64,000 nt of DNA from positions 24,184 through 88,183 of the forward strand of contig JAGOAJ010000008.1 of assembly GCA_017983955.1 (NCBI GenBank). The letters are read 5' to 3'. The notes beneath the pieces were generated by a model. That model was not told the origin of the DNA. It was given only the letters and a program-made list of their open reading frames with translations, and did no database searches. This document shows positions 19,601 to 40,932 of this stretch, in pieces (the first letter of the stretch is position 1; each line of letters opens with the position of its first letter). The stretch comes from Burkholderiaceae bacterium (lineage in GTDB: Bacteria; Pseudomonadota; Gammaproteobacteria; Burkholderiales; Burkholderiaceae_B). The position numbers and the translations under genes were made by a program.

Positions 19601-19618
19601 AATGTACACAATCTATAG
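19601..19618. promoter_or_regulatory. Candidate GntR-type operator AATGTACACAATCTATAG, upstream of the SDR-TRAP operon
   Basis: It has a TGTACA palindromic core about 35 bp upstream of the SDR start, in the region divergent from the GntR gene. It resembles the ATTGTATACTATCTAC 16-mer at 24426 and 29863 (11 of 15 positions match). Confidence 0.45.
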
Positions 19619-19726
19619 TTACGACAGCCTATATCCGCGTAATGGCGCACAATATAACAAGGAATGGATACATTCCAGCCAATTAAAACGACTCACTAGG
19701 GAAAACCATGAGCAAGGAGCGCGACA

Positions 19727-21091: not shown

Positions 21092-21257
21092 CTAGTTTAG
21101 TTATTATTACCTGGCCGTACACAAAGGCTTTATCCACAGTACGGTCAGGAAATTAGCACAAATAAGACTTGTAGCCAGTCTTACCGCGTCTTTACAATCA
21201 ATTTATGGATATAGACGATAAATACCTCCGTAAGCTCAAAACGTGGAGACTGATCAA

Positions 21258-23383: not shown

Positions 23384-23662
23384 CTACCAGGAAACCTTGA
23401 TGTCGCCATTGACGAAGGTTTGGCAGGCCATGCGATAGCCATTGTCAAAGTCTTCGGGCTTCAAGTGCTTACGCTCCTTCGGCTTGATGGCATCGGTATT
23501 TTCCACCCCCTCTTCGATACGACATTTACAAGTGCCACAAAGACCGCCGCCGCATTTGAATGGAATACCGCCTTTTTCCCTAAGCGACACACGCAACAGA
23601 TTGCTGTTTTCGGGTGCAGTGACAGCCAACCCGCCGTTGCTGATAAAAGTAATCTGAACCAT
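23384..23662 (-). CDS. Stand-alone plant-type [2Fe-2S] ferredoxin
   Basis: It has the cluster motif C-x4-C-x2-C (KCGGGLCGTCKC) plus a distal MACQ. I trimmed the start to ATG 23662 (MVQITFISNGG...) so it no longer overlaps the upstream gene, whose stop is at 23671. Confidence 0.85.
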   Translation of the reverse strand: MVQITFISNGGLAVTAPENSNLLRVSLREKGGIPFKCGGGLCGTCKCRIEEGVENTDAIKPKERKHLKPEDFDNGYRMACQTFVNGDIKVSW

Positions 23663-23670
23663 AAGTGACA

Positions 23671-23985
23671 CTATCCTGCTACTTGTGCATTCGAGCATGG
23701 CACCAACGAGGCGTCCATGCTTCCAAATGATGTTAAATAGTTGAGTTCCTTGCGGGCATCCTCGAGCGAGGCAAATTTTTCCAGAAATTTGGATGGCACA
23801 TCGTTGACGACATACGGTGGCTCGTCTTCAACCACCCGCACTTTCGTTTCACCGTCCAAGATGGCTATCTGAAAAACCGCTTTGATTTTGCCGTAAAAGT
23901 GGTATTCATAAGACTCGACAACGCTTAGCGCGGCTGCCAGTTCTGTATGAAATTTTCCTGGTTTGCTCGTTAATATCACGTACAT
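23671..23985 (-). CDS. Small hypothetical protein (104 aa), no recognisable cofactor motif
   Basis: The ORF is tightly packed between two ferredoxin genes. It has a single Cys near the C-terminus and no family that I recognise. Confidence 0.55.
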   Translation of the reverse strand: MYVILTSKPGKFHTELAAALSVVESYEYHFYGKIKAVFQIAILDGETKVRVVEDEPPYVVNDVPSKFLEKFASLEDARKELNYLTSFGSMDASLVPCSNAQVAG

Positions 23986-24026
23986 AAATAACCTCGTCCG
24001 TATCTGGCGAAAGTAAGCTTGCGCAA

Positions 24027-24323
24027 TCAGCCCACATCCTGCGTCAGTTCAATATCATGTGTCAGCCATAGCTGGCACGCCAGGCGATAGCCTTCGTCGA
24101 TGCGCTCGCCCAGTTGTTTCTTTTCCTTCCAATTCACTGGGGGAAGGTTTTCAGCGCCGGCAATAATGCGACATGCGCACTTGGCGCACTTGCCCATGCC
24201 GCACTCGTACTTCAAGTGCGGAAAAGGGAACTGTTTGATGCCTGCCCGTACTACGAGATTGGTGTTGTCTTTCACTTCTCCCGTGAACTTCTGGCCAGCC
24301 TGATGAAAAACGACAATTGGCAT
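24027..24323 (-). CDS. Stand-alone plant-type [2Fe-2S] ferredoxin
   Basis: 98 aa with ECGMGKCAKCAC (C-x4-C-x2-C) plus a distal LACQ. Confidence 0.85.
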   Translation of the reverse strand: MPIVVFHQAGQKFTGEVKDNTNLVVRAGIKQFPFPHLKYECGMGKCAKCACRIIAGAENLPPVNWKEKKQLGERIDEGYRLACQLWLTHDIELTQDVG

Positions 24324-24416
24324 AAAAATGACTCGCTACATAAATCAGTAAATAACGGCTCCCCACTGGGGCTATCACCACATCGATGAATGAATGTCTG
24401 GGCACTCTTATCGATA

Positions 24417-24470
24417 CATATGTAGATTGTATACTATCTACATATGATGTCTCTAAGGGAATATACCCAG
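24417..24470. promoter_or_regulatory. Operator region: a 30-bp perfect palindrome CATATGTAGA-TTGTATACTA-TCTACATATG followed by the box CTAAGGGAATATACCCAG
   Basis: I read this directly. The 10-bp arms are exact reverse complements and the spacer contains the GTATAC palindrome. It lies ~95-120 bp upstream of the ferredoxin operon start (24323). Confidence 0.55.
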
Positions 24471-24507
24471 AGAGCGCCCTAAAGGCGCGCTCTTTTGACG
24501 CGAATCG

Positions 24508-25476
24508 TCAGTCCGTCCGACGCGCAAACCGGGATGCCAGCACCGAACAAAGCATGAGTTGAATTTGGTGAAATATCATTAACGGTAAAACCACCATGCC
24601 CACGCCCCCACCTGCAAAAATGACTTGCGCCATGGGTACGCCAGTTGCCAGGCTTTTCTTGGAGCCGCAAAAAAGCGCAGTGATCTGATCCGCCTTGTCG
24701 AACTTCATGACTTTGCCGACCAGCACCGACCACAGCAGGATCAGCAACAGAACAACCAGGCTGCAAACTACCAGGCCAAGTATGGCCGTCAACGAGGTAG
24801 AGGACCACAGACCTTCATTGATGGCCTGCGAAAAGGCAACATATACCACCAATATGATAGAGCCCTGATCGACAAACTTAAGTATTGCCTTGTGCCGGGT
24901 GACCCACGCCCCTATCCAGCGCCGGGCAAATTGCCCAAGCACAAACGGCAGCAGCAACTGCAGCATTATCTTGCCGATCACATCATAAGAAATCGGTGCT
25001 GTGGCGGAACTGGCAATCACCAATCCCACCAAAAGTGGCGTTATAAAGATGCCCAGCAAGCTTGACGATGCCGCGCTGCACACAGCAGCGGGCAAGTTGC
25101 CCCGCGCAATCGAGGTCAGCGCAATGGCGGACTGAACCGTGGCGGGCAGACAGCACAAAAAGAGCACACCCGTGTAAAGCTGCGCGCCGACCAAGGGTTC
25201 CAGCACGGGCCGCAACGCCAGCCCCAAAAGCGGAAACACCAAAAATGTCGTGCTGAAGATGGTCAGATGCAAGCGCCAGTGCGTGACTCCCGCGACGATG
25301 GCCTGGCTTGAAAGACGTGCCCCATGCAGGAAAAAAAGCAAGGCAATGGCAATGTTAGTCGCCCATCCTAAACCATGAAGGACGAGTCCCTGCGCGGGCA
25401 AAAGGCTGGCTAAGCCCACTGCAATTAACAGATATAGAACGAAACGGTCGGGCAGCAAACGCGTGATGACGGACAT
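24508..25476 (-). CDS. yfeH: Bile acid:Na+ symporter (BASS) family transporter, YfeH-like
   Basis: 322 aa. Long blocks match my recollection of E. coli YfeH: LLFF.HGA.LS..AI.AG..HWRLHL, LPATVQSAIA.TS.A.GN..AAVCSA..SSLLGIF..PLLVGLV, GKIMLQLLLPFVLG, FCGSKKSLA.G.PMA and VLPLMIFHQIQLM.C.VLA.R. Confidence 0.9.
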   Translation of the reverse strand: MSVITRLLPDRFVLYLLIAVGLASLLPAQGLVLHGLGWATNIAIALLFFLHGARLSSQAIVAGVTHWRLHLTIFSTTFLVFPLLGLALRPVLEPLVGAQLYTGVLFLCCLPATVQSAIALTSIARGNLPAAVCSAASSSLLGIFITPLLVGLVIASSATAPISYDVIGKIMLQLLLPFVLGQFARRWIGAWVTRHKAILKFVDQGSIILVVYVAFSQAINEGLWSSTSLTAILGLVVCSLVVLLLILLWSVLVGKVMKFDKADQITALFCGSKKSLATGVPMAQVIFAGGGVGMVVLPLMIFHQIQLMLCSVLASRFARRTD

Positions 25477-25575
25477 GAATAGAGTGCAACTTTAAAGAGG
25501 CTGCAGAACGGTGCCTGTAACCCTTGAGGTGAGATAGGCAGACGTAAGCCACCGAAGCCCTTGATCCGTAAGGCG

Positions 25576-25594
25576 AAAAACGGTATACTTAAAT
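25576..25594. promoter_or_regulatory. GTATAC-box upstream of yfeH-like gene (reverse complement ATTTAAGTATACCGTTTTT)
   Basis: It lies ~105 bp upstream of the 25476 start. It shares GTATACCGTTT with the box at 33228-33247. Confidence 0.4.
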
Positions 25595-25847
25595 TCGTCA
25601 ACAAATACAATAGGTGTAAACCATGAATAAGGATTTAGCTCGTTATTTAAGCGCCCCCGTCGGTGAGCAGTTGCTTAAGCATTTCGAAAATCGCGCAGAA
25701 CTGCGTCGCACGATCCCTTTGTTTCCATTTTCATTTTCCAAGCTGTTTGCTCGTAAGTCGCATACAGACAAAGCTCGTACGCACAAGACGTCACATACGG
25801 TGTGTCACCACCACTGAACTGCTGTATACATTGGCGCATAACTAGTC

Positions 25848-26864
25848 TTACGCAGCCGCTTCAGTCTGGTACTGAAACGTGAAGCTGTCGGCATACATAT
25901 AGTCCAGGTCGGCGCCATGCTGGGCGAATAGCGACTTGGCATCGCCAATCATGTTTGGCGAGCCACAAAGGTAAATGGCGTGCTCAGACAAGTCATTGAA
26001 ATCTTGAGCCACCGCCTGCTGCACATGACCGCGGCGGCCTTGCCACTGCGGTCCGCCTTTTGACAGCACCGGCACAAAGTTGAATTCGTACAGACGATTT
26101 TTCCAGGATTCGATTTCGTCGCGCAAGTAAAGCTCTTCCTCGGTGCGCATGCCCCAATACAAAGACACTGGCGGGCAATCATCATTGTCCAGTAGCGATT
26201 CCAGTATGGCTTTGATGGGCGCCAATCCAGTGCCGTTAGCTACCATCACCAGAGGGCGCCAGTCGTCTTCGTGATAACAAAACGTACCTAGCGGCATTTC
26301 AATATTCAGAGCCGACCCTGCTGGCAAGGCCGTTAACAGCTGCTGGGTGAAGTGACCACCGGGTATCTGGCGTACGTGAAAATCAACTAAATTTCCGTTG
26401 ACTGCCGAAGAGGCCATGGAAAAACTGCGCGATGTACCATCATCCAGCAAAATATTCATGTATTGCCCTGGACGGTAGTCCAGCGGCGTATCGGCTGGGA
26501 GCTCTAGCGTCAAATGAACAATGTCGGCCGACAACGGTTGAACAGCGCTTAACCTAGCGCCCACACGCAATGGTTCGGCAAATGTCGGGCCTTTTTTCGC
26601 TGCGCTAAGCGTAACGTCTGAAACCGGTCGGGCTTGACAGGCCAACGCATAACCCTGGGCCGCCTCTTCTTCGGTAAGCGCCATCGGAAACTCGTCGTAG
26701 CGCACTGACCCGGCTTCTAGCTTTATTCGGCATGTGCCGCAACCGCCAAACTGGCACTCATGCGCCATCTTGACGTTGGCACGCAATGCCCCGTCCAGAA
26801 TAGACTCATCTTCATTGACCTCGAAGGCCTCGTCAGTTCCCAAAACATGAACACGATAAGACAT
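25848..26864 (-). CDS. Ferredoxin-NAD(P)+ reductase with N-terminal plant-type [2Fe-2S] domain (oxygenase-reductase type)
   Basis: It has ECQFGGCGTCRIK...ALACQ for the 2Fe-2S cluster, RSFSMAS for FAD binding, and MVANGTGLAPIKAIL for NAD(P)H binding. I trimmed the start to ATG 26864 (MSYRVHVLG), which has a GAAGG SD; the longer track ORF would run through a terminator hairpin. Confidence 0.9.
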   Translation of the reverse strand: MSYRVHVLGTDEAFEVNEDESILDGALRANVKMAHECQFGGCGTCRIKLEAGSVRYDEFPMALTEEEAAQGYALACQARPVSDVTLSAAKKGPTFAEPLRVGARLSAVQPLSADIVHLTLELPADTPLDYRPGQYMNILLDDGTSRSFSMASSAVNGNLVDFHVRQIPGGHFTQQLLTALPAGSALNIEMPLGTFCYHEDDWRPLVMVANGTGLAPIKAILESLLDNDDCPPVSLYWGMRTEEELYLRDEIESWKNRLYEFNFVPVLSKGGPQWQGRRGHVQQAVAQDFNDLSEHAIYLCGSPNMIGDAKSLFAQHGADLDYMYADSFTFQYQTEAAA

Positions 26865-26890
26865 ACCTTCACTCCGACAGTTTTTTGCGG

Positions 26891-26923
26891 AAAAAAAAGG
26901 GCGCATAACTACTGAATGCGCCC
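26891..26923 (-). terminator. Rho-independent terminator after glcG-like gene (stem GGGCGCAT/ATGCGCCC, then T8 on the minus strand)
   Basis: The minus-strand sequence reads GGGCGCATTCAGTAGTTATGCGCCC followed by TTTTTTTT. It is located between the glcG stop (26940) and the reductase start (26864). Confidence 0.7.
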
Positions 26924-26939
26924 CTTTTCACCCTAAGTT

Positions 26940-27419
26940 TTACTTCTTGATATCTGCTTGCACCAGGACTTTCATACCCTTGTCGGCCAAGGCGTCAGCC
27001 AGAGCCTGCAGACCAGCCAGTGCAGCCTTGGTGTCCTGCTCTCCGTTGCCGCCGCTCAGGCCGATACCGCCGATGACTTCATCGTCGACCACAATCGGGA
27101 ACCCACCCACGAAAGCTGCAAACTTGCCTTCGAAACTGAGCTGTATGCCAAAGGCTTCATTGCCTGGCAAGGCTGGGCCGTTAGGCGCCGTGGTGAACAG
27201 ATGGGTGGAACGCTTATGGCCGGCGGCCGTAAAGGCCTTGTTCCAAGCGATTTGCGGGCCGGTGATCCGGGCACCGTCCATACGCTCCAGAAGAATCGGG
27301 AAGCCACCTTCATCAACTACGCAGACAGTTTCCAGCACGTTGATTTCTTTGGACTTCTTGACTGCGGCAGCCACCATCAAACGGGCTTCTTCCACTTCCA
27401 GACGTAAAATCTTTTTCAT
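26940..27419 (-). CDS. GlcG/HbpS-like (DUF336) heme-binding/accessory protein
   Basis: 159 aa. It has LEVEEARLMVAAAVKKS..., VCVVDEGG.PILLERMDGA, NKAFTAA and GG.PI....EVIGGIG.SGG, all characteristic of DUF336. Confidence 0.85.
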   Translation of the reverse strand: MKKILRLEVEEARLMVAAAVKKSKEINVLETVCVVDEGGFPILLERMDGARITGPQIAWNKAFTAAGHKRSTHLFTTAPNGPALPGNEAFGIQLSFEGKFAAFVGGFPIVVDDEVIGGIGLSGGNGEQDTKAALAGLQALADALADKGMKVLVQADIKK

Positions 27420-27464
27420 TGCAAATCCTTTAATACTTTAAAAATAAATCCGAAGCTAAGCTGG

Positions 27465-28967
27465 TTAGCCCGCGCGATAGACTGTTTTGATCTGGGTATA
27501 GAACTCCAGGCCAACACGGCCCGACTCACGAAACGTCGAAGTGCTTGATCGCTTCAGGCCACCAAACGGCGCATTCATCAAGTTGCCAGTTGTTGTACGA
27601 TTGATCTTGACCGTACCGGACTGGATATCTTGCGCAAAACGGTGGGCATAGACAGCGTTTTTGGTGGCAATAGCTGCCGAAAGACCATATTCCGTGTCAT
27701 TGGCCTTGACTATGGCATCGTCGTAATCTTTGACTTCTATAATTGCCAGCACCGGTCCAAAGATTTCCTCTTTGGCGATCCGCATATCCTGCGTAACGTC
27801 GGTAAACACAGCCGGAGTCACGTAATATCCGTGCTCGAATTCGCCGTCCTCTAGACGGTCACCACCGATCAAGTGGGTAGCTTCGTCTTTTCCGATGGCA
27901 ATATAAGCCAGCACATTTTCCATCTGGCCCTGTGTAGCCAGGGGGCCCAGATCGAACCCGATTTGCATACCGTTGCCGATTTTCAAAGCTTTGACCTTGG
28001 CGATCAGCTTTTCGGTGAAAGCCGCCTTTACCGCAGACTCGACCAATACCCGACTGGTGCCGGTACATGCCTGGCCGCTAAGCGAAAACCCGCCCTTTAC
28101 AGCCAAATCAACCGCCTTGTCCAGATCGGCGTCCGCCAGAACGATCAAGGGGTTCTTGCCGCCCAGCTCCATTTGCGTGCGTGTTGTCATGCCGACAGCA
28201 CGATGAATATGTTCACCTGCCGCTGTTGATCCAGTGAAGGAGATCGCCCTGACTTCAGGGGATTCGGTAATGGTTTTGCCTACCGCCGATGCGCGGCCGG
28301 TAATGAAGTTAAGCACGCCTGCCGGTATGCCAGCCTTCACAAAGGCCTCGGCCAGACGGTATCCGCTTAGCGGCGTATCGGTTGATGGCTTGAAGACTAC
28401 GGTATTGCCAGCAATCAAAGCCGGAGCAATTTTTCGCGCCGGTATGGAAACGGGGAAGTTCCATGGCGAAATAACAGTAACAACGCCCAGCGGTTCGCGC
28501 TGAGTGTAGACAATCATGTCATTGTCGTCCTGGGGAAAGGTTTCGCCGGTAAATGTCTGGCCTTCCACTGCGTAAAAACGCAGGGTCTGCGCCGACCGAA
28601 TCACTTCGCCCTTACTAAGATCCAGGCCTTTGCCTTCTTCGCGAGTCAGCTCTTCGGCAATTTGATCTGCATTCTGTTCCAGATAGTCAGCCGCCGAAAA
28701 CAGGATTTGCGCCCGTTTAGCAATAGGGGTATTTTTCCAGCCAACAAATGCGGCCTGCGCTGCGGCAACTGCCGCTGCGGCGTCGCTGGCATCGCTGGCT
28801 TGAAAGTTGCCGACGATATCACGCGTATCAGCCGGACTGATGTTTTTGTATGTATTGCCAGATGCGCTGGAAACCCAGGCGCCGCCAATGTAATTTTGAA
28901 ATACCTGATTCTTTAAATCTTGCACTTTATTGTTCCCTGAACACCTGCCGATAAGGCTGCCAATCAA
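27465..28967 (-). CDS. NAD(P)+-dependent aldehyde dehydrogenase
   Basis: It has YIGGAWV, VISPWNFP, FTGST, ELGGKNP and the catalytic Cys in GQACTGTSR. The start is uncertain: TTG 28967 has AAGGA 7 nt upstream, and GTG 28925 has AGGGAA 7 nt upstream. Confidence 0.92.
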   Translation of the reverse strand: MIGSLIGRCSGNNKVQDLKNQVFQNYIGGAWVSSASGNTYKNISPADTRDIVGNFQASDASDAAAAVAAAQAAFVGWKNTPIAKRAQILFSAADYLEQNADQIAEELTREEGKGLDLSKGEVIRSAQTLRFYAVEGQTFTGETFPQDDNDMIVYTQREPLGVVTVISPWNFPVSIPARKIAPALIAGNTVVFKPSTDTPLSGYRLAEAFVKAGIPAGVLNFITGRASAVGKTITESPEVRAISFTGSTAAGEHIHRAVGMTTRTQMELGGKNPLIVLADADLDKAVDLAVKGGFSLSGQACTGTSRVLVESAVKAAFTEKLIAKVKALKIGNGMQIGFDLGPLATQGQMENVLAYIAIGKDEATHLIGGDRLEDGEFEHGYYVTPAVFTDVTQDMRIAKEEIFGPVLAIIEVKDYDDAIVKANDTEYGLSAAIATKNAVYAHRFAQDIQSGTVKINRTTTGNLMNAPFGGLKRSSTSTFRESGRVGLEFYTQIKTVYRAG

Positions 28968-29050
28968 CCAACAATCCTTTAGTCGGCGGCTGCAATTGCA
29001 GTCGCCGATCCCTGATCACAAGCCGATTGGCCGTAATATGCAGCAGTGGC

Positions 29051-29782
29051 TTAGGCCGCTACTTCCAGTTCTTCCAGCGCAATTTCGGACTGCACGTAAT
29101 CGGTATACAAGGCGGTTGTGTACAACAGACGCATTTCAGCCCCAATTTCGCAAATCTTCAGGCAACGTTGCTGCAACTCTACGGTATCGGCATGCTCCAG
29201 CACGATCTGGTAACCACGTTCGCCGTGGATTTCGTCCGACACAATATGCAGGTCGAAAAACTCGACTTCTTCGTCAGTGAAGCCATAAGTGTCGCGTAGC
29301 GTCGGCGTTTGTTTGCGATAAATGGAAGGCACTTGCGATTCCAGACCCACTACCAAGCCGGCAACGGCCACAACGGGATCTTCGCGCATCGCTACGGCAT
29401 AGCACCATGACTGCAAGGCGCGGGTAGTAGGCGACATATTATCTGGGTTGACCACGCGTTCGCGTGTGGTACCGCAGGCTTCGGCAAAACGGATAAGCAG
29501 ATCGGTGTGGCGATCGCCACCGATTTCTTCTTCATACATATTAGCCAGCAGGAAGTCTTTTGCTTCAACAAATGCGGCTGGCGTACGGGCATAAAGGTAG
29601 CCCAAGTAGTCGGCAAATGGGCCTACATAATGGTAGTGATTTTCAGCCCAGCGAGCCAGGTGTTCGCGGCTTAATTTACCAGTTGCCCAGGCAATGCTGA
29701 AAGGCGATTTATTCGCTGTCTTGCCTTTGATAGCATTTTCGAGTGCGGTACGGAAATCGTCGCGGTTCATTAATTCGGCCAT
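29051..29782 (-). CDS. CADD/PqqC/TenA-superfamily heme-oxygenase-like protein with complete di-iron ligand set
   Basis: 243 aa and all-helical. It has a PqqC-like N-terminus (GKLSREHLARWAENHYHYV). The candidate ligands are E85-x6-H92, E148 and H179-x3-D183-x2-H186. It has a strong SD (AAGGA) and an ATG start. Confidence 0.8.
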   Translation of the reverse strand: MAELMNRDDFRTALENAIKGKTANKSPFSIAWATGKLSREHLARWAENHYHYVGPFADYLGYLYARTPAAFVEAKDFLLANMYEEEIGGDRHTDLLIRFAEACGTTRERVVNPDNMSPTTRALQSWCYAVAMREDPVVAVAGLVVGLESQVPSIYRKQTPTLRDTYGFTDEEVEFFDLHIVSDEIHGERGYQIVLEHADTVELQQRCLKICEIGAEMRLLYTTALYTDYVQSEIALEELEVAA

Positions 29783-29862
29783 GGTCTATCCTTTGTTAAA
29801 AGCACCTGCTGGTGCGGGGCAGTGCCAAGCGGCACATTAGTCTGAATCAAGCTTATGTGAAT

Positions 29863-29906
29863 ATTGTATACTATCTACTAAGTCGCAAAACTAGGGATAT
29901 CCCTAG
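29863..29906. promoter_or_regulatory. Operator region: ATTGTATACTATCTAC (an exact copy of 24426-24441), then the 16-bp perfect palindrome CTAGGGATATCCCTAG
   Basis: It lies 80-125 bp upstream of the CADD-like gene start (29782). The order and ~25-bp spacing of the two boxes match those at 24428/24453. Confidence 0.55.
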
Positions 29907-29932
29907 AGTTGGACTGCTATCTGCAACAATAA

Positions 29933-31387: not shown

Positions 31388-31394
31388 TATTGCC

Positions 31395-32930
31395 TTACCC
31401 GAAAATTACAATCGCGCAGATAGTGGAGATAAATAAGCCTATCAACACGGGCGGCATCAAGGCCCTGACCAAATCAAGCACATGCACACGCGCAAACCCC
31501 GCCACGGCAATCAACGACGACCAGGCGATCAAGGTTCCACCACCAGTCCATATAGCGCCCATCTGACCAATAGCCGCCAAGGTAGCGGGCTCAATGCCAA
31601 CCACCGGACCCAAGGCTCCTGACAACGTACCTGTTAACGGAAGCCCGGAAAACCCTGACCCGTCAATACCGGAAATCATACCGACCAGCAATACACCAAA
31701 GGCCACCATGAAATGGTTATCAGGAATAAGGTGTTGGCCTGCAGAAATGATTTCAAACAACAAGCCTGGAGCTTGGTCGGTCGGAACCCCCAGTATCATT
31801 GCCGCGACTTCATTGGCGCCCAGGAAAAAGAAACCAGCAATGGGCAGTACCGAACCCATGGCCTTAAACGCAAACACAAAACCATCGGTTAAGTGATCGG
31901 GACAGGTGTCCAGCATCTTACGGGGGCCATCGGTAGCCAGCGCCGCCAGCATCATTAGTACAAATGCCACCCCGCCAACCAACCCGGCTGCATCGCCGCC
32001 ACGCAAGGCGGGCAGACTGGGGAATATGCTTGGCAAAACCATAATCATGATTACGCCCAAAAATGCCAGCGGTGTGACCACAGCAAACAATTTCGACCAT
32101 TTGATGCGGGTCCGTTCCTTAGCGGTCATGCCGACCTCAATTGGCTCGTCCGTCACCAGCTCATGTGTCGTACCGCGTGCAATTTCAGCCTTATCGAAAC
32201 TACCAGAGGACTCGACTTGCGTCAGCGTACTGTCTTGGGCGGTATTCTGCCAGGCCGTCAGCAAAGCGGCATTGGGTGCAACAAAATGCCTGCGCGTGAC
32301 TATATAGGTAATCAACAGAGCCACGACGCCAGTAATAATCGACAGCACCAGCGCGCGGTTACCCACGTCAATAACACTAACGGCGACCCCTGCTGCTTTG
32401 GCACTGATGCCAGGGGCAACGCCAATCACGTAATCAGACGACAAGGCCATGCCCTGACCTGCAATGGCGATAACCATCGCACCGACCAGGGGTGGCAAGC
32501 CTGCTGCAATTGCTGCGGGAAGCAAGATGGCCGAAACGAGGGGAACGGCAGGCGTTGGCCAAAAGAACAACGAAATGGTGTACGTACATATCGCAATCAC
32601 CAAAAACGAGGCAGGCCCGCCCTTCATGACTTTGCGAAACGGCTCGACCATTCTGACATCGGCCTCAAGCACCTTCAGCGAATTAAGCAGTGCGGTCATA
32701 AACGTAATGACCAGGAAAATATTGAACAACTCCTTAGCGGCGACAAAGCTGGCCGAAAAAATCCCGATCAAACCGCTGACTGGACTTCCAGTGATGGCAA
32801 AAACCACCAGGAATGTGCCTATCACCGAAGGCACGACAACGTTGGCCCGCATGATCATCGTAATGATAATGACGACTACACTGGCTAAATAAACCCAATG
32901 TGACACATTGAGCATGACATCTGTTGGCAT
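31395..32930 (-). CDS. Large polytopic membrane transporter, family unassigned (two hydrophobic halves joined by a hydrophilic loop)
   Basis: 511 aa with at least 12 predicted TM segments. A central polar loop reads ...NTAQDSTLTQVESSGSFDKAEIARGTTHELVTDEPIEVGMTAKERTR.... The gene ends 7 nt upstream of the GGT-family gene. Confidence 0.65.
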   Translation of the reverse strand: MPTDVMLNVSHWVYLASVVVIIITMIMRANVVVPSVIGTFLVVFAITGSPVSGLIGIFSASFVAAKELFNIFLVITFMTALLNSLKVLEADVRMVEPFRKVMKGGPASFLVIAICTYTISLFFWPTPAVPLVSAILLPAAIAAGLPPLVGAMVIAIAGQGMALSSDYVIGVAPGISAKAAGVAVSVIDVGNRALVLSIITGVVALLITYIVTRRHFVAPNAALLTAWQNTAQDSTLTQVESSGSFDKAEIARGTTHELVTDEPIEVGMTAKERTRIKWSKLFAVVTPLAFLGVIMIMVLPSIFPSLPALRGGDAAGLVGGVAFVLMMLAALATDGPRKMLDTCPDHLTDGFVFAFKAMGSVLPIAGFFFLGANEVAAMILGVPTDQAPGLLFEIISAGQHLIPDNHFMVAFGVLLVGMISGIDGSGFSGLPLTGTLSGALGPVVGIEPATLAAIGQMGAIWTGGGTLIAWSSLIAVAGFARVHVLDLVRALMPPVLIGLFISTICAIVIFG

Positions 32931-33065
32931 GTGGTTTTCCCCCTAACTGATCGCTAATATGTCGTTGATACCTTGCCGCCTTGCAGCTGATACCGGGACG
33001 TTGATAATAATTAACAGCGAACAGTGACGTTCCTGAAATTGATCGACACGGCATCCTAAGCGCCG

Positions 33066-33247
33066 CGAACGGTATACTGTATTTCAAAAATGATTTGATA
33101 GTTGAAGAAAAAACAGCTTATAAGGGATTACGATAATAAAAAACTGCCGATAACAGGCAAAACCTCTAGGGTATTCCCGCAAATCCTCATCAGACTGTGT
33201 CCAGTCCTTTCGATTCCCAACAAAATAGAATATCGTATACCGTTTAT
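33066..33247. promoter_or_regulatory. Divergent control region with two oppositely oriented GTATAC-boxes (33066-33085, 33228-33247) and an internal CTAGGGTATTCCC box (33166-33178)
   Basis: In gene orientation the boxes read GAAATACAGTATACCGTTCG (toward the minus-strand transporter) and GAATATCGTATACCGTTTAT (toward the plus-strand TauE-like gene). Confidence 0.45.
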
Positions 33248-33267
33248 AGCGTCCGGATTAGTCAACC

Positions 33268-34002
33268 ATGCATCAACTCGTTATGTTTTCCGACCCATGG
33301 CTATACGCCATGATGGCCGTGCTGATATTTTTTGCAGCCTTCATGCAGGGCCTGGGCGGAGTCGGGTTTGCCATGTTTGCCGCACCGATAGCCGCGATAT
33401 TTTTTCCACAAATGGTGCCCGGCACTCTGTTGACGCTAGGCGGGTTCGTGTCCTTGCTCACCGCATTACGCGAGCGCCACGATACCCTTTGGCCAACGGC
33501 CGGCGCAGCTCTGGCTGGGCGCGCCATCGGCACGTTAATCGCTGTCTTTGTCTTGGCTCAGCTGGCGCACAAATCCGTGAACCTGCTGTTTGCTGCCCTT
33601 ATTCTTATTGCTGTCGTCCTAAGCGTGGCTGGCCTACGCATCGCCACTACTCCTAGAAACATCACGCTGGCAGGAATAGTTTCGGGCATCATGGGCACGC
33701 TGACCTCGGTAGGCTCGCCGCCGCTGGTCATCGCGCTACAGCACACCCCGCCGCCCAATCTGCGCGCAACGCTGGGCGTTACCCTATTTTGCGGCTCGGC
33801 TTTTTCATTGATCATGCTGTCCTTTACCGGACACTACACCCTAGAGCAGCTCTTGCTAAGCGTGACCCTTGCACCCTTCATGTTTCTGGGCTTTTCACTG
33901 TCCAGCCAAATACATCAGAAAGTCAGCCCGGCAGCAATCAGGAAGCTACTGTTGACGTTTTGCGCCACCAGCGCTGTGGGCCTGATATTGAAGACCCTAT
34001 AA
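33268..34002 (+). CDS. TauE/SafE (TSUP, DUF81) family anion-export membrane protein
   Basis: 244 aa with 7-8 TM helices. It has the motif FAAFMQGLGGVGFAMFAAP near the N-terminus and a repeated half (GIMGTLTSVGSPPLV). Confidence 0.82.
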   Translation: MHQLVMFSDPWLYAMMAVLIFFAAFMQGLGGVGFAMFAAPIAAIFFPQMVPGTLLTLGGFVSLLTALRERHDTLWPTAGAALAGRAIGTLIAVFVLAQLAHKSVNLLFAALILIAVVLSVAGLRIATTPRNITLAGIVSGIMGTLTSVGSPPLVIALQHTPPPNLRATLGVTLFCGSAFSLIMLSFTGHYTLEQLLLSVTLAPFMFLGFSLSSQIHQKVSPAAIRKLLLTFCATSAVGLILKTL

Positions 34003-34059
34003 GGCCCTGGCCTGCCGAACCGGCAAGCGTTTATCTAACCGTAACCAAAAGATCATATA

Positions 34060-34803
34060 ATGGAAGCTCCGTCCATCACTTTTACACTCGGCTTAATGAA
34101 ATTGCCTGCTATTACCGCCGGACTGCCTGCCGCCAAGACTGACCCAGCGTCGTTGAAAATAGGTAATCAGCACTCCTCATTATTTGCGGTCATTGCCGAT
34201 AAGTTACGGGAACGTATCCTTAGCGGGGAATTCAAGCCAGGCGACCGACTAGTCGAAGGCAAGCTGTCAACCGATATGGCCGTTTCCCGCGTACCTGTGC
34301 GCGAAGCCCTGCGTGCGCTGGCTGCCGAAGGCCTGGTCACCATCGAGCCCCGACGCGGTGCCTATGTATCTATCTTGTCCGACGAAATCGCCTATGACAT
34401 GGTCGAAGTCCGCGCAACGCTTGAAGGCCTGAACGCCAAGCTGGCAGCACAGCGACGCGACGACAACACCATCGCTAACCTGCAAAAGATACTCGCCGAA
34501 GGCGCACAGGCCATTAACACTCAAAGCACTGAAAAACTGTTCGCCCTGAATATCCAGTTTCATGAAACGCTGGCGATTATCGCTGGCAATATTGTGCTGA
34601 CCGAGCTCATGCGCTCATTACGCGACCGTACTGCCCTTCTTTTTGCGCCCAGCAATATGCATCGGATCAAACAGAACTGGGAAGAACATGCGCAAATCCT
34701 AAGCGCTGTGATCGCCGGTAACGGCGATCTGGCTAGCCTGCTGGCCACGCAACACGTCCATAACGCCGCCAAGGCGTATGTCGACACCCGCAAGACGCCC
34801 TAA
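34060..34803 (+). CDS. GntR-family transcriptional regulator (FCD subfamily)
   Basis: It has LRERILSGEFKPGDRLVEGKLSTDMAVSRVPVREALRALAAEGLV and a helical FCD domain. The start may be at 34096 (MKLPA...). Confidence 0.88.
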   Translation: MEAPSITFTLGLMKLPAITAGLPAAKTDPASLKIGNQHSSLFAVIADKLRERILSGEFKPGDRLVEGKLSTDMAVSRVPVREALRALAAEGLVTIEPRRGAYVSILSDEIAYDMVEVRATLEGLNAKLAAQRRDDNTIANLQKILAEGAQAINTQSTEKLFALNIQFHETLAIIAGNIVLTELMRSLRDRTALLFAPSNMHRIKQNWEEHAQILSAVIAGNGDLASLLATQHVHNAAKAYVDTRKTP

Positions 34804-34941
34804 CGTCTCGCCCTCCCACAAAACCGCTGTACCCCACCCCTTCAGCCACGCCGACCTGCTCGCCTGAGCACGTCGCGCCGCTAGGCAATCCCTGACGACC
34901 GACCACCAACACGCGTCGTCACGCTCAATACACGTAAAACC

Positions 34942-35023
34942 CTAGGGATAACCCCGGATTCTTAAACTGGGCCATCCATGCTATTTTTCACATCTTGTAA
35001 TAAAGAATACTGTATACGAAAAC
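34942..35023. promoter_or_regulatory. Control region of the ABC operon: CTAGGGATAACCCC (34942-34955) and GTATAC-box GAATACTGTATACGAAAAC (35005-35023)
   Basis: The box order and ~70-bp spacing are the same as upstream of 33268. The GTATAC core lies ~60 bp upstream of the 35072 start. Confidence 0.45.
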
Positions 35024-35071
35024 ACAACGCATTGTAGTACTCCAGGACCACCTTAATAAGGAAACCAACCA

Positions 35072-36085
35072 ATGCTTTATTTCTCTACCAGTTCTTCCTC
35101 CGTCTTGCGCAAGCTATTGATTGCGTCCACAGCTGCCCTAATCAGCACCCAAGCCATCGCCGACACTGCCCCTACCAAGGTACGCTACGAAGAGGTTGTC
35201 AGATCCGTCCTTTATATGCCGATGTATGTCGCCTTGAATCAGAACTACTTCAAGGATGTCGGCCTGGATGTCAGCATGAAAACATCCCAGGGTACAGATA
35301 AAGGCATGGCCGCACTGCTATCGGGCAGCGCCGACATTGTGTTGATTGGACCGGAAGCGTCGATTTATGTCGCCAACAGCGAATCGCCAGTAAAACCCAA
35401 AGTGTTCGCCGGCCTGACGGCTACCGATGGGTTCCTGCTACTGTCTCGCCAACCCATAGAGAAATTCACTTGGGATATGGTCAAAGGTAAAAAGGTCATG
35501 TCGTTCCGGCCTGGCTCTAATCCAGATGTGTTTCTGGAATCGGCCATACGAAAAAACAATTTAGATCCGAAACGCGACCTAACCATGGTCAGTAACATTG
35601 GTGCAGCCGCGCGTGCGGGTGCCTGGATGGCCGGACAAAGCGACTTTGCCATCTTTCTAGAGCCTGAAGCAAGCAATCTTCAGAAAGACGGCCATGGGCA
35701 GATCGTCGCCTCTGTGGGTCAGGAAGTCGGCCAAGTGGACTTTACCGCTTTTACAGCCACCGACGCCTACTTGGAGAAAAACCCCAAGGTCGCGCAAGCG
35801 TGGACCAACGCCATTTACCGCGCACAGAAATACGTAGCCGATGCACCGCCCAGCGACTTGGCCAAGCAGATCAGTTCCTACTTTCCCGGCATCACGCAAG
35901 ACGAGTTGGTGACAACAATAGAGCGCTATCGCCAATACGACCTATGGAAGAAAACCCCCATGGTCGAACCAGCCGCCATCGAGGCGTTGCAAGATATGCT
36001 AATTGCCAGCGGGCTGCTTGAGTCAAAAGACCGTGTGCCCTACGAACAAGTAGTCCTAACCAATTTTGCAACCGAGGCCAAATAA
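35072..36085 (+). CDS. ABC transporter periplasmic binding protein, NMT1/THI5-SsuA/TauA-like (NitT/TauT family)
   Basis: 337 aa with a signal peptide ...STQAIA/DT. It has VRYEEV.RSVLYMPMYVA...YFKDVGLDV, typical of NMT1/SsuA-type receptors. Confidence 0.85.
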   Translation: MLYFSTSSSSVLRKLLIASTAALISTQAIADTAPTKVRYEEVVRSVLYMPMYVALNQNYFKDVGLDVSMKTSQGTDKGMAALLSGSADIVLIGPEASIYVANSESPVKPKVFAGLTATDGFLLLSRQPIEKFTWDMVKGKKVMSFRPGSNPDVFLESAIRKNNLDPKRDLTMVSNIGAAARAGAWMAGQSDFAIFLEPEASNLQKDGHGQIVASVGQEVGQVDFTAFTATDAYLEKNPKVAQAWTNAIYRAQKYVADAPPSDLAKQISSYFPGITQDELVTTIERYRQYDLWKKTPMVEPAAIEALQDMLIASGLLESKDRVPYEQVVLTNFATEAK

Positions 36086-36087
36086 CA

Positions 36088-36921
36088 ATGACCACACAAG
36101 TTCTGGAAAGAGCCTCGGCCCCCAGCCACGCAGCCGCCATACGGGCACGTATCGAGATCGACAATGTCTCGTTGCACTATTTCACCAAGCAAGGGGAAAC
36201 ACAGGCGCTGGACAACATCTCGCTGGATATCGGCGCAGGTGAATTCGTCAGTATCATCGGACAATCCGGCTGTGGGAAAAGCACGCTGCTGTCGATTATG
36301 GCCGGCATTCTTCGTCCATCCCAAGGCAGTATTAAAGTCGACGGCAAGGCTGTCACGGCGCCATCGCCGCGTATAGGCTACATGCTGCAGCAGGACTATC
36401 TGTTTGAATGGCGCACCATACTCGATAACACACTGTTAGGCGCCGAGATCCAGAAACGTGACATGAAGCAGGCACGGGAACGTGCCATCTACTTGCTTGA
36501 AAAGTGTGGCATGGGCGACTTCCAAGATCACTACCCTAGGGCCTTGTCGGGCGGCATGCGCCAGCGCGTTGCCCTGGCCCGTACCTTGGTGACCGATCCA
36601 GACGTCGTCTTGCTAGATGAACCATTTTCCGCCCTGGACTCGCAAACTCGCCTAGCCATCGCCGACGAAGTCGTCGATGTGCTTCGCAGCGAAGGCAAGT
36701 CAGTGGTGCTGGTCACGCATGATATTGGCGAAGCCATTGCCATGACCGACCGCGTCATCGTTCTGTCCCGCCGTCCAGGCCGCATCAAATCGCAGTATCT
36801 GATGAAGTTCCCTAGTCACGGCGCTGGGCACCCCACTCCGTTCGAGGCACGTTCTTTACCTGAATTCAACACCTACTTCAACATGTTGTGGGACGAGCTT
36901 GACGTGCACGTAGAAGGCTAA
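36088..36921 (+). CDS. ABC transporter ATP-binding protein (NitT/TauT family)
   Basis: It has Walker A GQSGCGKST, the signature LSGGMRQR and Walker B VVLLDEPFSALD. Confidence 0.92.
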   Translation: MTTQVLERASAPSHAAAIRARIEIDNVSLHYFTKQGETQALDNISLDIGAGEFVSIIGQSGCGKSTLLSIMAGILRPSQGSIKVDGKAVTAPSPRIGYMLQQDYLFEWRTILDNTLLGAEIQKRDMKQARERAIYLLEKCGMGDFQDHYPRALSGGMRQRVALARTLVTDPDVVLLDEPFSALDSQTRLAIADEVVDVLRSEGKSVVLVTHDIGEAIAMTDRVIVLSRRPGRIKSQYLMKFPSHGAGHPTPFEARSLPEFNTYFNMLWDELDVHVEG

Positions 36922-36936
36922 CCCTGGAGCAACACT

Positions 36937-37815
36937 ATGGAACTAAACCCTGCTATGTCTCTGAATAATACATCGGTCCAAACCCAAGTCGCCGATCACG
37001 CGTCGGCCGCCCAGGCCAACAAAGGCCCCAGCCCAGCCTATGTTGCCTATTTGAAAAAACAAAGCCGTCGGCAAAACATGATTTCGCTAAGCCGCATCAT
37101 GCTATTGGTGATATTTTTGGGTCTGTGGGAATTTATGGCCAAGACCAAAATGGTCAATCCCATGCTAACCAGCTACCCCAGCGCACTATGGCCCACCTTT
37201 CTTGATCTGCTGCAAAACGGCAATCTTATGCTGCACACCTGGGCTACCTTCAAAGCCACTATCATCGGCTTTATTATCAGCATGATTATGGGCGTGGCTG
37301 TAGCTGCCGCATTATGGTGGTCGGATTTTGCCAACAGGGTACTAGACCCCTTTCTGGTCATAGCCAACGCCATGCCAAAAATCGCCTTTGTCCCCATCTT
37401 CTACATTTGGCTGGGTTCGGAATATTCTGTGTATGGCATGGCTGTCGCCATTTCGGTCTTTATCACCATAATGGTGGCCTATGAAGGCTTTCGCGGTATC
37501 GATCCCAACAAAATCAAGCTGGCCCTTACCCTGGGAGCCTCGCGTTGGCAGATCCTTAATATGGTGGTGCTTCCCGGCAGCGTGCCCACCTTGCTGGCAG
37601 CCTTGAAGATGAATATCGGACTTGCACTGGTCGGTGTTATTGTTGGCGAGTTTCAATCAGCCAGCGAAGGCCTAGGATTTTTAATCATCAATGGCAGCCA
37701 GGTATTCAAACTGAACATCGTCATGACCGCCATCGCTATCCTGGCCGTCTTGTCCGGCTTGATGTATTTGGCTGTTGCACGCCTGGAAGCAGTCACTTCC
37801 CGCCGTTACGCTTAA
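36937..37815 (+). CDS. ABC transporter permease (NitT/TauT family)
   Basis: 292 aa with 6 TM helices. It has an EAA-like loop (...ALTLGASRWQILNMVVLPGSVP). Confidence 0.88.
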   Translation: MELNPAMSLNNTSVQTQVADHASAAQANKGPSPAYVAYLKKQSRRQNMISLSRIMLLVIFLGLWEFMAKTKMVNPMLTSYPSALWPTFLDLLQNGNLMLHTWATFKATIIGFIISMIMGVAVAAALWWSDFANRVLDPFLVIANAMPKIAFVPIFYIWLGSEYSVYGMAVAISVFITIMVAYEGFRGIDPNKIKLALTLGASRWQILNMVVLPGSVPTLLAALKMNIGLALVGVIVGEFQSASEGLGFLIINGSQVFKLNIVMTAIAILAVLSGLMYLAVARLEAVTSRRYA

Positions 37816-37824
37816 GGAGCTGAA

Positions 37825-38538
37825 ATGGATTTTCCTCAATGGGTTATTGATCGGGTCGTAGCACGCCAGGGGTGCTTACACCCCTATCCCGAGTTTGACC
37901 CCAGCAAGACGGCTTTCGTCATTATTGACCTGCAAAACTACTACACGCAGCCAGGCTTCCAAGGTGAGTGCGCCCCCGCGCGGGCGACGTTCGGCGCAGT
38001 CAACAAACTGGCGCAAGCCTTGCGCCAGGCCGGTGGCCACGTGGTTTGGATAAAAACCAGTTCAGACGGCGCCGACCAATTCTGGTCGCACCACCATAAC
38101 CATATGCTCACGCCTGAACGCAGTGCACGGCGACTGACCGAACTTAGCCCCAATCATGACGGCTTTCGCATGCCGCCCGAACTGGACGTTGACCCGCAAG
38201 ACCAGCAGGTCATCAAGCGCTGTTATAGCGCTCTGTCACCTGGCTCATCAAGCCTGGATGACGTGCTTAAAGCGAAAGGCATCACTACAGTCCTTATTGG
38301 CGGCACGGTGACCAACGTCTGTTGCGAGTCAACCGCGCGCGACGCCATGATGATGGATTACGCCACCATCATGGTCGATGATGCGCTATCGGCTGTTACG
38401 CCCGATGAACACGTCAACTCTTTAAACAACTGGATGCTGTTCTTCGGTGATGTGCTTAGCGTTGATGAGGTAATAGAACGCCTTCAACCTGGCGGCATCA
38501 TCCAAACCGAGGAAGCAGAAATACAAGCTGCGGTGTAG
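37825..38538 (+). CDS. Isochorismatase-family cysteine hydrolase (amidohydrolase)
   Basis: 237 aa. It has AFVIIDLQNYY (catalytic Asp) and VLIGGTVTNVCCESTARDA (nucleophilic Cys), with a Lys in between. Confidence 0.88.
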   Translation: MDFPQWVIDRVVARQGCLHPYPEFDPSKTAFVIIDLQNYYTQPGFQGECAPARATFGAVNKLAQALRQAGGHVVWIKTSSDGADQFWSHHHNHMLTPERSARRLTELSPNHDGFRMPPELDVDPQDQQVIKRCYSALSPGSSSLDDVLKAKGITTVLIGGTVTNVCCESTARDAMMMDYATIMVDDALSAVTPDEHVNSLNNWMLFFGDVLSVDEVIERLQPGGIIQTEEAEIQAAV

Positions 38539-38554: not shown

Positions 38555-38584
38555 AAAAAAAGCCGCATAATGCGGCTTTTTTTG
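38555..38584 (+). terminator. Bidirectional rho-independent terminator (A6-AGCCGCA-TAA-TGCGGCT-T6)
   Basis: A perfect 7-bp GC-rich stem is flanked by A- and T-tracts, immediately after the hydrolase stop. Confidence 0.75.
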
Positions 38585-38630
38585 TTTCTGCAACTATTGA
38601 CGCGCCACCCCAGCCGTTGCACACTAAATC

Positions 38631-40921: not shown

Positions 40922-40932
40922 AGAGGTTCCTT

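Follow-up and report, generated by a model that had tools for sequence, protein, structure and literature searches.

The 64-kb stretch of Burkholderiaceae DNA analysed here (the window, whose numbering is used throughout) contains at positions 23384-38538 a gene cluster that includes a heme-oxygenase-like di-iron protein (HDO), a [2Fe-2S] reductase, two small [2Fe-2S] ferredoxins, an aldehyde dehydrogenase (ALDH), several transporters and hydrolases, and a GntR/FCD transcription factor. The original prediction, made from the sequence alone, had listed these genes and had read them as an undescribed catabolic system in which the HDO receives the electrons of the redox proteins. Its gene list was accurate: all 16 open reading frames (ORFs) were present as placed, each named ORF belonged to the expected family in the Pfam/NCBIfam profile check, and those bearing a family exceeded the Pfam gathering scores (ORF map, Pfam and NCBIfam scans). 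The genes are as follows (aa, amino acids; GGT, gamma-glutamyltransferase):

23384-23698, likely 23384-23662, minus strand: Fer2_B, small [2Fe-2S] ferredoxin, the second of the pair (Pfam Fer2, 50 bits)
23671-23985, minus strand: 104-aa protein of no family, between the two ferredoxin genes
24027-24323, minus strand: Fer2_A, small [2Fe-2S] ferredoxin (Pfam Fer2)
24508-25476, minus strand: SBF_like (BASS/YfeH) transporter (Pfam SBF_like, 331 bits)
25848-26906, minus strand: reductase of the NAD(P)H:ferredoxin type (Pfam Fer2, FAD_binding_6 and NAD_binding_1)
26940-27419, minus strand: GlcG/HbpS-like (DUF336) protein, 159 aa (Pfam HbpS-like, 112 bits)
27465-28967, minus strand: NAD(P)-dependent ALDH (Pfam Aldedh, 558 bits)
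29051-29782, minus strand: HDO (Pfam Haem_oxygenas_2/TENA_THI-4)
29933-31387, minus strand: GGT-family Ntn hydrolase (Pfam G_glu_transpept, 350 bits)
31395-32930, minus strand: 511-aa polytopic membrane protein of no family, first gene of the transporter-GGT operon
33268-34002, plus strand: TauE/SafE (TSUP) anion transporter (Pfam TauE, 87.5 bits)
34060-34803, plus strand: GntR/FCD transcription factor (Pfam GntR and FCD)
35072-37815, plus strand: NitT/TauT-type ABC importer, with binding protein, ATPase and permease (Pfam NMT1, ABC_tran and BPD_transp_1)
37825-38538, plus strand: isochorismatase-family cysteine hydrolase, last gene of the ABC operon (Pfam Isochorismatase, 119 bits)

The minus-strand genes are transcribed in the order 511-aa protein, GGT homologue, HDO, ALDH, DUF336 protein, reductase, SBF_like transporter, Fer2_A, 104-aa protein and Fer2_B, with gaps of 7 bp between the 511-aa and GGT genes, 150 bp between GGT and HDO, 371 bp between the reductase and SBF_like genes, and 184 bp between SBF_like and Fer2_A. 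The word island, used for the cluster in the original prediction, was not borne out by composition (GC 0.52-0.58 across the whole window); a plasmid or mobile-island origin was rejected, since megablast against 72,556 plasmids gave no match and the composition showed no anomaly.

Conservation of the neighbourhood, the check that had been suggested for this cluster, strongly supported it. HDO homologues were abundant, with 1,444 at E ≤ 1e-10 among the candidates scored and at least 574 relatives in a collection with one genome per species. Seventy-nine loci were fetched with up to 10 kb of flanking DNA and searched with every window protein; the counts given below are for those 68, from alpha- and betaproteobacteria, that measured 15 kb or more. 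The source genera include Achromobacter, Bordetella, Cupriavidus, Paraburkholderia, Variovorax, Ramlibacter, several Acetobacteraceae, Aminobacter, Kaistia and Methylocella. Within 10 kb of the HDO gene, Fer2_B and the 104-aa protein were each encoded in 67 loci, Fer2_A and the DUF336 protein in 66, and the GntR protein in 65. A second group was formed by the ALDH (60 loci), the 511-aa transporter (57), the reductase (56) and TauE (46). The GGT homologue was rare (12 loci), the ABC importer and the isochorismatase were found in 3, and searches with the window proteins detected the SBF_like transporter, the flavin monooxygenase that follows the cluster and the ornithine cyclodeaminase (OCD) and arginase that precede it in none of the 68 related loci. 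Gene order and strand were rearranged among the loci, and the Fer2_A/104-aa/Fer2_B trio, present near the HDO gene in 66-67 of the 68, was never split. Independent gene calls with precomputed Pfam hits agreed with these results in Achromobacter, Poseidonocella (a roseobacter), Aminobacter and Billgrantia (a gammaproteobacterium), and did so likewise in Roseococcus, Alcaligenes and metagenomic contigs. The smallest arrangement (L088) consists only of the DUF336 gene and an HDO-Fer2-small protein-Fer2-GntR block, amid leuS, lptE, pnp and rpsO; its HDO is 85% identical to that of the window.

The gene set is real and co-regulated, and it occurs in hundreds of proteobacterial genomes. The syntenic counts and the minimal locus therefore define a functional core composed of the HDO, the two ferredoxins, the small protein, the DUF336 protein and the GntR regulator. 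The reductase, the ALDH and the 511-aa transporter usually form a second shell around this core, and TauE and an OCD/mu-crystallin-family gene a third. The latter gene is absent from the window; it was found in ~25-30 loci, located after Fer2_B or TauE (after Fer2_B in the closest relatives L008, L032, L034 and L040, and in Alcaligenes L090), and the structure of an orthologue has been solved but not characterised (PDB 3hdj). Other genes are lineage-specific feeders: the GGT homologue, a PRK06170-type amidase, the isochorismatase accompanied by the ABC importer (Alcaligenaceae, Variovorax and L089) and an Abhydrolase_3 esterase. Some loci showed further particularities. In Aminobacter species the block of redox trio, ALDH and TauE lies several kb from the block of HDO, DUF336 protein and reductase, and the locus of the methylotroph Aminobacter aminovorans (L006) carries a second Haem_oxygenas_2 gene (20607-20759), ~10 kb downstream of the first. 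In one metagenomic genome (L089), malate synthase G (13401-15605) adjoins the GntR gene of the cluster, which may hint at glyoxylate as an end product; in the Escherichia coli glycolate operon malate synthase G is also accompanied by GlcG (DUF336) and a GntR/FCD regulator.

The HDO scored 131.3 bits against Pfam Haem_oxygenas_2 (PF14518; gathering score 28.9), placing it within this superfamily. Its nearest solved relatives are the CADD/4-aminobenzoate synthases (E 5e-18 to 2e-16 over ~180-200 residues, ~25-30% identity), and its alignment to the solved CADD structures over residues 10-214 predicts the seven-helix heme-oxygenase fold. Residues E85, H92, E148, H179, D183 and H186 align with all six metal ligands of CADD (E81, H88, E142, H174, D178 and H181) and were invariant in 73 orthologues. 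The sacrificial Tyr27 of CADD corresponds to Ser29, a serine conserved in 72 of the 73. The best NCBIfam match was the CADD family TIGR04305, with 97.5 bits against a cutoff of 200; PqqC (TIGR02111), under which name several sources annotate HDO homologues, reached 48.5 bits against a cutoff of 240. The ligands being kept, Tyr27 being replaced and the CADD and PqqC scores being far below cutoff, the protein is therefore an HDO and neither CADD nor PqqC; on the same sub-cutoff scores and the Tyr27 to Ser29 replacement, the identities of CADD-like 4-aminobenzoate synthase and of PqqC were rejected. The HDO is 84-93% identical across alpha-, beta- and gammaproteobacteria, against only 70-79% at the DNA level. 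Its orthologues gave a single full-length representative in a library clustered at 50% identity, the next full-length relatives being at most 48% identical. This near-frozen sequence suggests a densely constrained multi-protein machine.

The two ferredoxins have intact cluster cysteines. Those of Fer2_A (C41, C46, C49 and C83) were invariant in 60 orthologues, and those of Fer2_B (C49, C54, C57 and C92) in 52. Translation of Fer2_B most likely starts at the internal Met13 (position 23662), giving a protein of 92 aa, as judged from the orthologous sequences, 50 of 52 of which have no such extension. The domain order of the reductase (Fer2, FAD_binding_6, NAD_binding_1) is the BenC/MmoC architecture, with an N-terminal plant-type [2Fe-2S] domain followed by an FNR module. 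The NCBIfam scores for BenC (197 bits) and MmoC (185 bits) were both below cutoff, so that the reductase is a member of the class and not of those families; its Fer2 domain gave a weak match to YfaE.

The 104-aa protein encoded between the ferredoxins showed no Pfam match at E ≤ 10, and no NCBIfam or PDB sequence match. Its 361 homologues share no conserved Cys or His. The AlphaFold2 (AF2) model is confident (pLDDT 88.9) and has six strands and one helix; Foldseek against the PDB gave no match to this fold (best E 0.34). The protein is the least conserved (55% identity), the DUF336 protein being second to the HDO with a median identity of 79%. Two identities were tried for it and rejected: an MmoB-like effector (no Pfam match and no fold match), and a ferredoxin (no conserved Cys/His and no Fer2 signature). 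Public records label the homologues P0129, P0131, P0134 and P0141 'ferredoxin', a label probably carried over from the two neighbouring genes. The DUF336 protein has several relatives in the PDB: OrfY (2a2l), NahX, the PduO C-terminal domain and the formaldehyde sensor EfgA. EfgA binds formaldehyde, and DUF336 genes are typical of pathways that generate reactive aldehydes (PMC8153426). The window protein shares the family with GlcG, the PduO C-terminal domain, NahX and EfgA, whose context is that of aldehyde pathways; it differs from them in belonging to a far more conserved subfamily (79% median identity), obligatorily linked to the HDO.

The transcription units of the cluster are also connected by their promoter regions, as the original prediction had claimed from recurrent intergenic motifs. 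A box centred on GTATAC, roughly (A/C)GGTATACA(A/G)T(A/G)T, precedes every transcription unit, and a second motif, AGGG-W4-CCC, accompanies each GTATAC box. The regulatory features are as follows:

24429-24434: GTATAC box upstream of the Fer2_A operon, overlapping a TACAAT -10-like hexamer
25583-25588 and 25824-25829: GTATAC boxes upstream of the SBF_like gene
29866-29871: GTATAC box, 84-89 nt upstream of the HDO start
29893-29904: palindromic AGGGATATCCCT motif upstream of the HDO operon
33072-33240: divergent promoter region of the 511-aa transporter and TauE genes, with GTATAC at 33072-33077 and 33235-33240 and the AGGGTATTCCC motif at 33168-33178
34944-35017: promoter region of the ABC/isochorismatase operon, with AGGGATAACCC at 34944-34954 and GTATAC at 35012-35017
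38555-38585: bidirectional intrinsic terminator hairpin with a T-run, AAAAAAAGCCGCATAATGCGGCTTTTTTTG, at the right end of the regulon and before the flavin monooxygenase

These motifs are real: 7 of the 13 GTATAC sites of the 64-kb window fall in the promoter regions of the cluster, within ~1.3 kb of intergenic DNA, and AGGG-W4-CCC is confined to the cluster in the window, with 4 hits against 0.32 expected (29893-29904, 33168-33178, 34944-34954 and about 24457-24468; longer variant GGGAATATACCC). Among the alpha- and betaproteobacterial loci inspected, 19 of 20 carried a GTATAC box 50-130 nt upstream of the HDO gene, and these loci include GC-rich genomes in which GTATAC occurs only 2-7 times per 20 kb. 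In Alcaligenaceae loci a GGG-W4-5-CCC motif preceded the GTATAC box by ~30 nt; among the inspected loci the motif was found only there and in two unclassified relatives, and it may be the site of a second regulator. A shared palindromic putative operator thus stands before each transcription unit and is kept in orthologous loci, as in a GntR/FCD regulon, and an operator box overlapping the -10 region is the classical arrangement of GntR/FCD repressors. The GntR/FCD protein, whose best NCBIfam match was phnR_burk (131 bits, below cutoff), is proposed from these sequence features to be the repressor of the whole regulon. Through the shared putative operator, the SBF_like gene and the operon of the ABC importer and isochorismatase are linked to the core in the window, though they are accessory elsewhere. 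No riboswitch or leader RNA was found, the hairpin region 38555-38585 being the only place between 21 and 41 kb with sub-threshold Rfam leader/terminator matches; a scan for consensus promoters and terminators performed no better than on shuffled sequence.

Several proteins of the cluster bear on uptake. The 511-aa protein had no Pfam or NCBIfam match, even at E ≤ 10. Its AF2 model (pLDDT 76) matched elevator-type anion transporters in Foldseek, the top match being the isethionate TRAP transporter IseQM (E 2.7e-6), followed by SiaQM (sialic-acid TRAP), MleN, ArsB, the sulfate transporter NaS1, Pho90 and VcINDY (dicarboxylate). Because of this likeness of the model to anion elevator transporters, the substrate is probably a small anion, and the 511-aa protein is a probable importer of it. 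TauE is proposed to be a sulfite/sulfonate exporter or, alternatively, an importer; TauE and/or the 511-aa transporter were encoded in 64 of 65 loci, TauE only in 10 and the transporter only in 21. The ABC importer is an accessory uptake module, syntenic in L008, L034, L081, L083 and L089; in L087 an NMT1-type ABC transporter, not accompanied by an isochorismatase, also adjoins the core. The SBF_like transporter is a window-specific insertion between the reductase and Fer2_A. The 371 bp upstream of it hold a 64-codon ORF on the opposite strand, which is probably spurious.

The GGT homologue and the isochorismatase-family hydrolase are accessory 'feeder' enzymes. The former scored 255 against TIGR00066 (cutoff 358) and is therefore a member of the GGT superfamily that falls short of the gamma-glutamyltransferase family; its nearest solved structure is the 'cephalosporin acylase' 2nlz, and it has no signal peptide, in agreement with its earlier description as cytoplasmic. 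The isochorismatase-family hydrolase, present in L089 in addition to the 3 counted loci, is nearest to the RutB ureidoacrylate amidohydrolase and to biuret hydrolase, below the cutoffs of both. For the ALDH the best NCBIfam match was alpha-ketoglutaric semialdehyde dehydrogenase (573 bits, cutoff 770), and the nearest solved structures are betaine/amino-aldehyde dehydrogenases. The substrate had been guessed from the two amide-cleaving enzymes to be a nitrogen-containing compound; the basis of this guess was not supported, as these enzymes are lineage-specific accessories (GGT in 12 of 68 loci, isochorismatase and ABC importer in 3), and it had passed over the sulfite-related hints given by TauE (46 of 68), by SorAB in Achromobacter and by the SsuA-like binding protein. 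Naming the substrate from the nearest relatives of the ALDH, the binding protein, the regulator, the OCD or the hydrolases was rejected, all of them being below family cutoffs; consequently, we make no commitment beyond a small anion, possibly a C2-C3 sulfonate.

The original prediction had stated that the cluster contains no flavin terminal oxygenase, and this is true between 23384 and 38538; 93 bp past the right border, however, there begins a FAD_binding_3 flavin monooxygenase (38631-39872, plus strand; NCBIfam PRK06185-type, 553 bits, above cutoff). This enzyme was considered as the true oxygenase and rejected, as it lies beyond the terminator hairpin and is absent from 68 of 68 related loci. 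No ORF for a ferritin-like hydroxylase subunit was found in the cluster or in the related loci examined. Because no other oxygenase is conserved with the cluster, the HDO is the sole candidate electron acceptor. That the ferredoxins and the reductase belong with it is supported by the trio, which 66-67 of the 68 loci carry at no more than 10 kb from the HDO gene, and by the minimal locus. The central interpretation made earlier, of an undescribed catabolic system in which a dedicated redox chain feeds the HDO, was upheld by the synteny, the minimal locus and the shared operator.

From the gene content, the synteny, the shared operator, the intact metal ligands and the cluster cysteines we infer an electron path, a reaction type and a class of substrate. 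We regard the cluster, with moderate confidence, as a single GntR/FCD regulon for a multi-component HDO oxygenase that depends on NAD(P)H and O2, and for the uptake and the downstream catabolism of a small anionic compound. In the absence of inducer, the GntR protein would occupy GTATAC boxes overlapping each operon's -10 region. The substrate would be imported by the 511-aa elevator-type transporter, or by the ABC system in some lineages. NAD(P)H would supply electrons to the Fer2-FAD reductase, from which one or both small [2Fe-2S] ferredoxins would carry them to the HDO di-iron site, and the cofactor-less 104-aa protein and/or the GlcG/HbpS-like protein could serve as coupling, gating/effector or aldehyde-handling subunits. 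The HDO would hydroxylate the carbon bearing the leaving group, the adduct would collapse to an aldehyde, and the ALDH would convert the aldehyde to the acid. An aldehyde product is hinted at by the ALDH and by the DUF336 relatives, including the formaldehyde-binding EfgA. The GGT homologue, the amidase, the isochorismatase and the esterase would be lineage-specific feeders that free the substrate from conjugates; their variety suggests that the compound occurs in several conjugated forms.

A more specific version of this pathway can be put forward only tentatively. In it, the C-S bond of a C2-C3 sulfonate resembling taurine, isethionate or sulfoacetate would be cleaved oxygenolytically, giving an aldehyde and sulfite. 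The sulfite would leave through TauE, or be oxidised by SorAB in Achromobacter. The clearest hint of sulfite as a pathway product is the adjacency of SorAB: the SorA/SorB sulfite dehydrogenase genes adjoin the HDO gene, divergently, in 12 Achromobacter loci (positions 7798-9355 in L001-L004). In Roseococcus, ssu-like genes (luciferase-like oxygenase, FMN reductase) stand beside the cluster. The sulfite hints, namely TauE (46 of 68 loci), SorAB, the SsuA/TauA-like binding protein, the ssu-like genes of Roseococcus and the IseQM match, are circumstantial. Because of these sulfite-related genes and the variety of feeders, oxygenolytic desulfonation is the reaction that we favour, as a possibility and not as a likelihood.

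A number of observations weigh against the pathway as drawn, in its general or in its sulfonate form. The reductase and the ALDH are both absent from 8 loci, Acetobacteraceae among them, and from the minimal L088, and hence cannot be strictly needed in cis. The 104-aa protein does not resemble effectors of the MmoB/DmpM type. The distribution of TauE and the 511-aa transporter, which looks partly complementary, would also fit TauE as an importer; moreover, TauE is absent from 22 of 68 loci, and the SorAB adjacency is confined to one genus. The best NCBIfam matches of the ABC binding protein, SsuA_fam (62 bits) and a taurine binding protein (33 bits), are both below cutoff, and the OCD-family gene has no clear role in the sulfonate model. 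The substrates of known HDOs are amino acids, peptides or fatty acids, not sulfonates. Both forms of the pathway are drawn from sequences and structure models.

The main rival reading keeps the same HDO oxygenase but has it cleave a C-N bond oxidatively, by N-dealkylation or by a ring-opening hydroxylation next to nitrogen. Its substrate would be an amino compound, or a cyclic or N-methylated amino acid, and its product an amino-aldehyde, an oxo-aldehyde or formaldehyde; TauE would be an alternative importer and not a sulfite exporter. Characterised HDOs use amino acids and peptides (PMC13108848). The OCD/mu-crystallin-family gene of ~25-30 loci belongs to an imine reductase/cyclodeaminase family, the ALDH resembles alpha-ketoglutaric semialdehyde and amino-aldehyde dehydrogenases, the feeders are all amide/ureide hydrolases that release amines, the DUF336 relative EfgA binds formaldehyde, and TauE and the 511-aa transporter are partly complementary. 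On the other hand, SorAB directly adjoins the HDO gene in Achromobacter, the best matches of the ABC binding protein are sulfonate/taurine families, and the OCD gene is missing from the window and from many loci. We consider this C-N cleavage possible but not likely.

A different role of the accessory proteins was also weighed. Ferredoxins can act in maintenance; YfaE serves ribonucleotide reductase in this way, and XylT serves catechol dioxygenase. By analogy, the ferredoxins, the 104-aa protein and the GlcG-like protein might be maintenance factors that re-reduce or re-assemble the di-iron site, the HDO itself being an oxidase that takes all its electrons from the substrate. Several HDOs carry out four-electron oxidations that need no stoichiometric reductant (PMC13108848), the 8 loci mentioned above and L088 hold ferredoxins but no reductase within 10 kb, and the Fer2 domain of the reductase weakly resembles YfaE. 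Against this, a dedicated BenC-type reductase is co-localised in 56 of 68 loci, two ferredoxins and a reductase would be a heavy outlay for repair alone, and MboB provides a precedent for an HDO that needs a reductase for turnover, which leaves a pure maintenance role improbable. Finally, that the HDO is a CADD-type self-sacrificing synthase of 4-aminobenzoate or another cofactor, with unrelated neighbours, is close to refuted: although its closest solved relatives and its best NCBIfam match are CADD, the TIGR04305 score (97.5 against 200) and the Ser29 in place of Tyr27 (Ser in 72 of 73 orthologues) speak against it, and the tight synteny with transporter, regulator, ALDH and redox proteins has no place in it.

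The multi-component HDO oxygenase proposed here was compared with known systems. Most HDOs characterised to date serve in the biosynthesis of natural products and cofactors, and in vitro work on them has usually relied on artificial reductants. CADD/CT610-type synthases share all six metal-binding residues with the window HDO and are the closest solved relatives by sequence, but CADD is self-sacrificing, biosynthetic and works alone, whereas the HDO described here sits in a regulon with transporters, a regulator, an ALDH and redox proteins. The original prediction had asserted that characterised HDOs were mostly studied with no dedicated encoded redox partners; to this there is now one published exception in the searchable literature, MboA/MboB of mangotoxin biosynthesis, in which the HDO needs a dedicated Fe2S2-flavin reductase for which chemical mediators are no substitute (PMC13185094, 2026). 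The pair was described as possibly the first dedicated HDO-redox partner pair (PMC13185094). In both systems the HDO gene lies beside that of a BenC/T4moF-class reductase, a likeness drawn from the gene pairing and the class of the reductase; MboAB differs in being biosynthetic, in acting on a tripeptide, and in having no separate ferredoxins, small accessory protein or DUF336 protein.

The components are also similar to those of the soluble methane monooxygenase (sMMO), the toluene/phenol monooxygenases and PaaABCDE: a di-iron oxygenase, a [2Fe-2S] NADH reductase, a cofactor-less subunit of ~100 aa and, in some of them, a ferredoxin. Those enzymes are ferritin-like, whereas the oxygenase described here is of the heme-oxygenase type and its small protein has no MmoB/DmpM signature. 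The system functions in the manner of the bacterial multicomponent di-iron monooxygenases, yet is not itself one of them. According to a 2026 review, the HDOs studied so far need no protein effector (PMC13108848), a statement that the system may contradict. With the desulfonation systems TauD, SsuDE and MsmABCD it would have in common the proposed reaction (sulfonate + O2 + 2e- to aldehyde + sulfite), TauE, SorAB in relatives and a SsuA/TauA-like binding protein; it differs in having no Fe/2-oxoglutarate enzyme, luciferase-like flavin enzyme or Rieske protein, and the link to sulfonates is circumstantial.

No description of the cluster was found in the searchable full-text literature, subscription-only papers lying outside it, in agreement with its earlier designation as undescribed. 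One apparent mention, the 'iron-containing redox enzyme' of a Pseudomonas aeruginosa N-acetylcysteine study, was rejected, being PA3519, a different HDO. In our rating the enzyme superfamily is known, whereas its physiological role (catabolism) and its multi-component organisation are new: the HDO is tied to an electron-transfer chain of its own and to two accessory proteins within a regulated uptake-and-degradation module. It is possible, though not likely, that the HDO is the first true multi-component monooxygenase of its kind (with a reductase, two ferredoxins, an effector and a DUF336 subunit), catalysing C-S or C-N cleavage. If so, soil, water and host-associated proteobacteria would possess an oxygenolytic C-S/C-N cleavage system that acts on a small, abundant sulfonate or amine alongside the routes of TauD, SsuD and Xsc. 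The cluster itself offers enzymologists a natural reductase/ferredoxin system for an HDO, and microbiologists a widespread orphan pathway, possibly a new desulfonation route. The module occurs in tractable hosts (Cupriavidus necator, Alcaligenes, Achromobacter, Bordetella bronchiseptica and Paraburkholderia), and the GntR operator offers an experimental handle for inducer screening.

The remaining genes of the region belong to other units. To the left, an operon of ornithine cyclodeaminase and arginase (21243-23257, plus strand; both above NCBIfam cutoffs) converges on Fer2_B and occupies the slot in which L008, L032, L034, L040 and L090 hold the other OCD-family gene. Its products were considered as members of the system and rejected, as they are bona fide enzymes with ~30% identity to the cluster-specific OCD of the relatives and occur in 0 of 68 loci. 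Further upstream, positions 11436-20431 form a separate catabolic unit with its own divergent GntR/FCD regulator, encoding a FAD_binding_2 oxidoreductase, three short-chain dehydrogenases and a TRAP transporter with two DctP binding proteins; a glutathione S-transferase gene comes next (20477-21091). To the right, positions 39914-49622 encode an Opp-type peptide ABC transporter and an AsnC-family regulator, followed by a pyridoxal-phosphate-dependent (PALP) enzyme, an AstE/AspA-type deacylase and an aminotransferase, a gene set that resembles the ectoine/hydroxyectoine degradation genes. Several other genomes have Opp-type transporters flanking the HDO cluster, which adjoin the GGT gene in Poseidonocella and lie a few kb away in Aminobacter.

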